A DNA stretch of 45,587 bases, from the IMG/VR virus record IMGVR_UViG_2597489870_000004. One strand, 5' to 3'. Shown in pieces: positions 27,849 through 28,244 of this stretch. The notes beneath the pieces were generated by a model. The model was not told where the DNA came from and did no database searches. It saw nothing but the letters and a program-made list of their open reading frames with translations. A program made the translations under genes and the position numbers. This DNA is from a virus (Duplodnaviria > Heunggongvirae > Uroviricota > Caudoviricetes). Position 1 is the stretch's first letter. Each line of letters opens with the position of its first letter.

Positions 27849-28244
27849 TTACTCACGAATCAGGCGAGCACTCTTACTATTCATTTCAATACGCGAATAC
27901 TGCGGTTTACCATCAATGATGTCTGTCATTACGAACACCTCACCCGGCTGCAGTTCAACTGCACCTTCCGGTAATTTCATACCGGCAAATACCGGACAAC
28001 CCGGATGACGATCATCTTCTGTTGCTTCCAGCATTGACTCACCAAACCACTCCGTCGTGGCGCGACCATCAGCTGCTTTGTAGTGGATCAAGTACTGGTT
28101 TTCGCCATCCGCATACTGCGCGCGGGCTTTAACCTCACCCCATTCATCACTGATACGCATCTCCACCAGTTGAGACAACTCAAACTTAAACGGAGCAGCA
28201 TCAGCACCAATTACAATCGGTTTGTTTTCTGTTTTTTCCATCAT
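27849..28244 (-). CDS. Hypothetical protein (moron between lysis genes and cos)
   Basis: 131 codons from ATG at 28244 preceded by AGGAGA; no recognisable family; maximal ORF to 28292. Confidence 0.6.
   Translation of the reverse strand: MMEKTENKPIVIGADAAPFKFELSQLVEMRISDEWGEVKARAQYADGENQYLIHYKAADGRATTEWFGESMLEATEDDRHPGCPVFAGMKLPEGAVELQPGEVFVMTDIIDGKPQYSRIEMNSKSARLIRE

Follow-up and report, generated by a model that had tools for sequence, protein, structure and literature searches.

In bacteriophage lambda, a single late transcript extends from the lysis genes across cos into the terminase genes Nu1 and A, and bor, a lipoprotein gene, is oriented against the late genes and read from a promoter of its own. 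In phage phiP27, gene L33 (NP_543085) follows an M15 endolysin gene and a small lipoprotein ORF and precedes the packaging genes; neither L33 nor PHROGs 1935 and 8618, the latter a 60-aa minimal form of the same family, carries an assigned function. At the level of protein domains, the control of AAA+ proteolysis by YccV-like domains is described for bacteria, plastids and mitochondria (PMC6719616, PMC7647994, PMC10665427). HspQ is an activator of Lon and, in its acetylated form, an inhibitor of ClpS (PMC6719616, PMC10665427), the barrel of PDIP38 docks on the zinc-binding domain of CLPX, and plant ClpF binds ClpS1 (PMC7647994).

The analysis presented here concerns one small gene in a 45,587-nt stretch of DNA (IMG/VR record IMGVR_UViG_2597489870_000004), referred to in its entirety as the window. 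This gene, carried by prophages of ETEC and STEC, is a dispensable hypothetical gene of an ordinary kind and has already been catalogued as phiP27 L33, under PHROG 1935 and as a hypothetical protein by PGAP. What is new is the proposed assignment of an HspQ-like core, the size of the family to which this core belongs, and the dissection of the gene into core, C-terminal extension and 565-bp cassette. It is very probably a real accessory gene of the late operon, and the barrel-shaped core predicted for its product points, more tentatively, to a protein-binding role during lytic growth.

Coding sequence and protein properties

The gene is present in one copy in the window, on the minus strand (27849..28244), and corresponds to ETEC_RS06665 (WP_000415817.1) of ETEC H10407, as annotated by PGAP. 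In the ORF list it runs from an ATG at 28244 to a TAA at 27849-27851, spanning 131 codons. The first-pass annotation, made from the sequence alone, had described an ORF with a good Shine-Dalgarno sequence, and this was borne out: the motif AGGAGA, read directly from the sequence at 28247..28252 (minus strand), precedes the first ATG by 2 nt and a second ATG (28241) by 5 nt. In ETEC H10407, PGAP starts the coding sequence at the second ATG, yielding a 130-aa 'hypothetical protein', and in one natural allele the first ATG is replaced by ATA. The second ATG is the more likely start codon, giving a protein of 130 rather than 131 aa. A 147-aa version starting at an in-frame upstream ATG (28292) was rejected, since that codon lacks a Shine-Dalgarno sequence and is not conserved. 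The ORF is a genuine gene.

The encoded protein was also confirmed to lack recognisable motifs, with no Pfam or NCBIfam match at E<=1, and to lack a signal peptide or transmembrane segment, the maximum Kyte-Doolittle mean over 19 residues being 0.9. It is a soluble, all-beta, cytoplasmic protein of acidic composition (pI 4.75, net charge about -9). Residues 2-116 match positions 1-116 of the 116 positions of the PHROG 1935 HMM (E 2.5e-69), and phiP27 L33 is 99% identical over aa 1-96, although L33 comprises 115 aa and ends in a different C-terminal tail. A sequence search of the PDB returned only noise (BH3703, E 0.75; retron Ec83 HNH protein, E 1.4), and a profile search of the PDB gave no match. 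Of 5426 complete E. coli genomes, 261 contain the DNA of the gene; most of these are ETEC genomes with a sequence identity of 100%. Nothing suggests a role as a virulence or surface factor, and a literature search on the accession, on HspQ-like phage proteins and on H10407 prophage transcriptomes yielded nothing usable.

A dispensable cassette between the lysis genes and cos

The host element is a lambda/P27-type prophage whose phage orientation corresponds to the minus strand of the window. Upstream of the gene, in phage order, are found two holin genes, an M15 endolysin gene (28846-29229), a terminator-like hairpin, a 37-aa membrane ORF and a 60-aa lipoprotein-like ORF; downstream come a 17-bp hairpin, approximately 350 bp of non-coding DNA, a lambda-like cosN, Nu1 and gpA. 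The initial placement of the gene between the lysis cassette and cos was hence correct. The next gene downstream encodes the Nu1-like small terminase subunit (26719..27264, minus strand), identified by PHROG 57 (E 2.2e-73) and by PGAP, and 188 nt before its start lies the predicted 12-nt cosN end, GGGCGGAAGGCG (about 27441..27452, minus strand). This call was made from the sequence: the 12 nt are followed by a stretch identical to CGCGGGTTTTCGCTATTTATGAAAATTTTCCGG of the lambda left end. Megablast with the interval 27408-27491 also finds lambdoid phages.

The lysis region shares 90-97% identity with phiP27, and the terminase is of the lambda Nu1/A type rather than the HNH plus TerS/TerL type of P27; because these two parts are combined, the prophage is a mosaic. 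The late region at 29972-31716 (minus strand) is laid out like that of an Stx phage without stx: a DNA methyltransferase gene (30667-31716) is followed by two tRNA genes (30371-30444 and 30545-30617, annotated as Ile and Arg in H10407), and a DUF3927/TciB-like ORF of 50 aa (29972-30124) is found where phiP27 has stx2e. Elsewhere in the prophage, a match to the sok antitoxin RNA (Rfam RF01794, 106.7 bits) at 34866-35037 (minus strand) points to a locus of the hok/sok toxin-antitoxin type, and the early region contains a DicF sRNA match (RF00039, 76.7 bits) at 41002-41053 (plus strand).

The immediate upstream neighbor of the gene, the lipoprotein-like ORF (28416..28598, minus strand), was recognized in translation by its lipobox LLVGC and corresponds to phiP27 L32 and PHROG 7528. 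A small lipoprotein-like ORF accompanies the gene in all close relatives, and in most loci the blocks of homology begin there. This ORF encodes 51-60 aa with three cysteines in the mature part, and may itself be the true bor-like gene of the interval between lysis genes and cos. It is preceded by the 37-aa ORF (28600-28713, minus strand; PHROG 4493), which ends in a transmembrane segment. The lysis cassette lacks a recognisable spanin, and for this reason the two tiny ORFs may be spanin equivalents.

In the inducible phage phiSTEC1575-Stx2k the flanking backbone is 88-93% identical and exactly 565 bp are missing, so that the stop codon of the lipoprotein ORF abuts the 17-bp hairpin. The missing segment (27846..28410, minus strand) comprises a 167-bp leader and the ORF, has a GC content of 47% against 53-54% in its flanks, and occupies a site between the last gene of the lysis region and the backbone hairpin, about 400 bp before cos. 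Given this clean absence from an otherwise syntenic phage, the gene is dispensable and carried on a discrete cassette that is moron-like in structure.

Such an arrangement invites the explanation that the gene is a moron of lysogenic conversion, expressed from the repressed prophage through a weak promoter in the 167-bp leader and providing a fitness trait to the host. A discrete cassette missing in a close relative, with GC below its flanks and situated in the classic lambdoid position for accessory genes before cos, is what this explanation predicts. The hairpins on both sides of the gene bear on it as well. An intrinsic-terminator-like hairpin with a U-tract, detected in a terminator scan and read from the sequence, follows the endolysin stop codon directly (28812..28838, minus strand), and it reads, on the late strand and upstream of the gene, CCCCGG...CCGGGG followed by TTTTTAGTTTT. 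On the other side, 3 nt past the stop codon of the gene, lies the perfect 17-bp hairpin (27805..27845, minus strand; fold dG -26.8 kcal/mol, z -5.0). Without antitermination, the first of these structures and the strong downstream hairpin would insulate the region, as the moron explanation would have it. The downstream hairpin, however, has no U-tract on the sense strand, the T-run preceding it on the plus strand, and it is kept in phiSTEC1575-Stx2k directly after the lipoprotein gene even though the cassette gene is missing there; it is therefore an element of the backbone, and its interpretation as the cassette's own terminator was rejected.

Two further observations concern the spacer before cos. 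The motif AAATAAAAAACCGG (minus strand) occurs twice, at 27626-27668 and at 27790-27803. Read on the plus strand, which is antisense for the late genes, the first copy folds into a hairpin of terminator type, CCGGCA...TGCCGG, with TTTTTTATTTT after it. An antisense transcript in this cos-proximal spacer could end there. A search of the interval 27200-28900 against Rfam identified no RNA family.

Probable transcription of the gene with the late operon

The gene lies on the same strand as the holin and endolysin genes and Nu1/A, and the region from the 28812-28838 hairpin to the head genes relies on antiterminated read-through. If the lambda arrangement holds, Q-modified polymerase would have to transcribe the gene, because the late transcript crosses it in order to reach Nu1/A. 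A consensus scan of the minus strand between 27200 and 29300 detected no sigma-70-like promoter; weak promoters escape a scan of this kind. In P2-like relatives the gene overlaps the preceding late genes (see below), which likewise indicates late co-expression. We therefore infer that the gene forms part of the Q-dependent late transcript and is not expressed in the lysogen from a bor-like promoter of its own.

The first-pass annotation had assigned the gene to the bor moron position, as an accessory gene of the kind expressed in lysogens. The discrete cassette, its low GC and its location between the lysis genes and cos agree with the accessory moron part of this assignment, whereas the consensus scan of the minus strand found no promoter such as bor has, and the orientation is not that of bor. 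The likeness to lambda Bor is one of position and of non-essential, accessory status. Bor is an exported lipoprotein encoded opposite the late genes and read from its own promoter, while the protein described here has no signal peptide and no match to the Pfam model Lambda_Bor, and its gene shares the direction of the late genes, with no promoter-like site detected on the minus strand between 27200 and 29300. A cytoplasmic product devoid of an export signal, together with relatives whose translation is coupled to that of late genes in P2-like prophages or that lie in early lytic regions in other phages, further argues against expression from the repressed prophage, and we regard the lysogenic-conversion moron as improbable.

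A conserved core with a recently added extension

Alignments of the protein define a conserved core at aa 19-75 (28020..28190, minus strand), predicted to form an SH3-like beta-barrel, with a signature of about 57 aa: FKFxLxQxVxIxxSxExGxVxxRAxYxxxxNxYLxxYKAADGRAxxxWxxESxL. Residues E34 and G36 are invariant in 69 diverse members, and many family members consist of the core alone (56-66 aa). The core is followed by a post-barrel segment at aa 76-96 (EDDRHPGCPVF...LPEGAV; 27957..28019, minus strand), delimited with alignment A1 and hhalign. This segment, in the form EDDRHPGCPVF...LPEGAVVxE, is kept in an enterobacterial subfamily whose proteins stop at approximately 83-98 aa. The remainder of the protein, at about aa 97-128 (27855..27955, minus strand), is a C-terminal extension delimited by an in-frame 96-bp indel relative to alleles of 98 aa: short E. 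coli alleles carry 5 bp in place of 101 bp of the window sequence. The extension matches a family of its own, the 42-aa PHROG 8025 (E 1.4e-9).

The ratio pN/pS, computed among 14 distinct long alleles, was 0.26 overall, and it differed markedly along the protein, with values of 0.13 for aa 17-96, 0.77 for the N-terminal tail (aa 1-16) and 0.65 for the C-terminal extension (aa 97-131). Synonymous diversity was also lower in the extension than in the core (pS 0.042 vs 0.172), and three alleles, among those of loci L039-L042 (~6340-6350), have a stop at codon 117, within the extension, that leaves the core intact. The segment spanning aa 17-96 is thus under purifying selection, and this N-terminal core of about 80 aa is the selected functional unit. 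The C-terminal 32 aa are a recent in-frame addition under weak constraint, as indicated by their low pS, relaxed pN/pS, codon-117 stops and separate PHROG, and by the arrangement of a further locus, L075. There (5101-5853) an insertion, a low-GC ORF of 177 aa, comes after a 98-aa allele, and beyond it lies a 39-aa remnant, ...LITALIDCKPQYSRIKISDQHVRLIRE, that is homologous to the C-terminal extension of the window protein. Since this remnant lies downstream of a short allele, the extension probably arose through fusion with a downstream fragment. It may derive from the 177-aa ORF, to which its similarity is weak and for which Pfam and PADLOC gave no match.

The core also occurs in other architectures. 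It is found in tandem (P0043, P0112), and fused to the N-domain of a tail-fibre-assembly protein (P0115), to a Cys-rich C-terminal domain (P0152, P0154, P0174), to repeated uncharacterised domains (P0176, P0194) or to an Lcl_C/DUF1566-like domain (P0193).

Predicted fold and similarity to HspQ

Structure prediction had been proposed as a check on the unrecognised protein and was carried out with AlphaFold2 on an alignment of 59 sequences. The resulting all-beta model has a mean pLDDT of 83, with values of 89-95 over aa 21-80, and it places an SH3-like barrel at the core. In a Foldseek search against the PDB the model ranked 5ycq first (E 8.8e-3), and E. coli HspQ (PDB 5YCQ) is the closest solved structure by two methods. 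All structural neighbors in BFVD had E > 1e-3 and were small phage proteins of uncharacterised function.

Profiles were also aligned with hhalign, using an HspQ query identical in sequence to 5ycq_A. The alignment of the 69 diverse members (A2) matched the single HspQ sequence with a probability of 71%, and an HspQ alignment of 120 sequences with a probability of 90% (E 1.7e-6, 72 columns); alignments A3 and A1 reached 50% and 3%, respectively, so that the support varies with the alignment chosen. The 72 aligned columns span the whole barrel and continue past it, bringing the DDRHPGCP (DDRHPxxP) of the post-barrel segment onto the DEHPEQP (DEHPxxP) of HspQ, within its 'QDEHPEQP' stretch. As controls, reversed alignments gave a probability of 0.1%, and the highest score among 30 column shuffles was 29.9, compared with 39.8 for the unshuffled alignment; the best shuffle had a probability of 54%. 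The Pfam model of the YccV-like family, PF08755, matched none of the 69 members at E<=10 and did not match the window protein at E<=1.

On this modelled evidence, the core likely forms an SH3-like barrel, with the YccV/HspQ domain as its closest known relative. With moderate confidence, based on predicted fold and remote profile similarity, an HspQ-like domain related by homology appears somewhat likely. We place the protein apart from YccV-like family membership, because the PF08755 test failed and because the functional tail of HspQ is missing.

Family distribution and genomic contexts

Homologs of the protein are numerous. A set of 5.8 billion proteins contained 107 of them, in Escherichia, Salmonella, Yersinia, Edwardsiella, Enterobacter and Klebsiella, and a profile search of representatives at 50% identity returned 667 clusters at E<=1e-3. 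A profile scan (A1) of genome contigs gave only 7 loci, in Edwardsiella, Yersinia, Phytobacter, Pseudocitrobacter and Izhakiella.

The genomic contexts of these relatives vary. In P2-like prophages of Enterobacter the gene overlaps by 1 nt a DUF2514 lysis-cassette gene, likely a spanin, and gpR is next. In a P2/HP1-like prophage of Yersinia it follows terS with an 11-nt overlap and precedes gpL, and in Escherichia phage ESSI2_ev040 it is again found after terS and before gpL. In phiP27 the downstream genes encode an HNH endonuclease and a terminase different from the Nu1/A pair of the window prophage. Further phages carry the gene directly before a GP3-type terS or a GpA TerL, or two genes before Terminase_4, and in Bcep176 the family member is among small early genes. 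For distant members, neighboring genes were surveyed in an ORF-based Pfam census of 80 IMG/VR loci. Downstream of the gene, at a distance of up to 4 kb, 61 of them have a large ORF. In 15 of these 61 the first one encodes a TerL, against about 9% expected by chance by our own estimate, and in other loci it encodes DNA methylases (7), reverse transcriptases (4) or integrases (3). Clustering of the neighboring ORFs revealed no conserved small partner gene, only a GpA-type TerL in 14 loci. The family thus consists of accessory genes that are promiscuous in position, with a moderate enrichment just upstream of packaging genes, and wherever the strand of the neighbors can be read the gene sits in a lytic operon.

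The enrichment near terminase genes could potentially be indicative of an accessory factor for DNA packaging that aids the terminase or cos recognition, for instance through binding to the small subunit of the terminase. The gene is no more than 1-3 genes from terS or TerL in the majority of close contexts, and this holds across terminase types (lambda Nu1/A, P27 HNH+TerS, P2 M subunit, GP3_package, Terminase_4, GpA), to which the TerL excess in distant loci may be added. Such a factor would not be required, however, as the gene is absent from lambda and from phiSTEC1575-Stx2k, which has the same Nu1/A backbone; most distant members are away from terminase genes, near DNA methylases, reverse transcriptases and integrases; and accessory genes in general tend to insert at the junction upstream of terS, a hot spot. 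Homology to a structural or packaging protein, which the first-pass annotation had named as one finding that would overturn its view, was absent from Pfam, PHROGs, NCBIfam and the PDB. The strong acidity of the protein makes direct contact with DNA unlikely, and direct DNA binding was rejected as a mode of action on account of the net charge. A packaging role is accordingly given a low probability.

The same promiscuity is compatible with a protein of counter-defence or host takeover unrelated to proteolysis, i.e. a small acidic binder that would inhibit a host defence system or some other host protein. Genes of this class are typically small, acidic, dispensable, patchy and positionally promiscuous, as this one is, and the BFVD neighbors of the model are all uncharacterised small phage proteins. 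None of the PADLOC models, which cover defence rather than anti-defence genes, was similar to the window protein, and the position in a late operon is unusual for this class, because anti-defence genes are mostly early. We know of no anti-defence protein with this SH3-like fold. We regard this explanation as improbable, and the probability that remains after all the readings considered here falls to something else.

Possible function and comparison with known systems

The best reading, a tentative one, is that the gene encodes a late-transcribed accessory protein-binding module that possibly acts on host AAA+ proteolysis. The gene would be transcribed late, in the Q-dependent transcript, its barrel would represent a minimal YccV/HspQ-like domain, and the protein, a small protein-binding module, would adjust the activity of a host protein while the phage grows lytically; the foremost candidates for this target are Lon and ClpS/ClpAP. 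The link to proteolysis is suggested by the docking of YccV-like domains elsewhere onto AAA+ protease machinery. Modulation of host Lon or ClpS/ClpAP in lytic growth ranks first among the specific mechanisms, and is nonetheless rather unlikely when taken by itself. A more elaborate version, in which the barrel would be a minimal phage YccV/HspQ docking module rewiring Lon or the ClpS-ClpAP N-degron pathway late in infection, and the extensions and fusions would act as cargo or specificity domains, is speculative and improbable. If it were true, the family, with at least 667 clusters in proteobacterial phages and absent from Pfam, would be a class of viral protease adaptors or anti-adaptors that had so far escaped notice. 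Should the HspQ-like reading alone be right, a large uncharacterised phage family would gain a docking hypothesis (Lon, ClpS, ClpX), and the theme of YccV-like protease regulators would extend from bacteria, plastids and mitochondria to viruses.

The comparison with HspQ itself shows both likeness and difference. The two proteins are predicted to share the topology of the SH3-like barrel and, in the profile alignment, a D-[DE]-x-H-P-x-x-P motif after it, and both are acidic (pI 4.75 for the window protein vs 4.53 for HspQ). The phage domain lacks the insertion of about 15 residues that HspQ carries between beta2 and beta3, a loop that varies within the YccV-like family (PMC7647994). The hhalign alignment stops at HspQ residue 89, and the phage proteins end there or continue into unrelated extensions, so that the family is without the C-terminal tail of HspQ, which holds the Lon-binding sequence and the acetylated Lys96 (PMC6719616, PMC10665427). 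Because the insertion and this tail are missing, the mechanism of HspQ is not directly transferable. The genetic setting also differs, HspQ being encoded by a heat-shock gene of the chromosome and the window protein by a phage-borne gene in a late operon.

With PDIP38/POLDIP2 and ClpF the comparison is limited to architecture. In these proteins an SH3-like YccV barrel docks on components of AAA+ proteases (PMC7647994), and some members of the phage family join the barrel to a variable second domain or duplicate it, in an adaptor-like manner. PDIP38/POLDIP2 and ClpF have several domains, belong to eukaryotes or organelles, and carry a beta2-beta3 insertion of large size.
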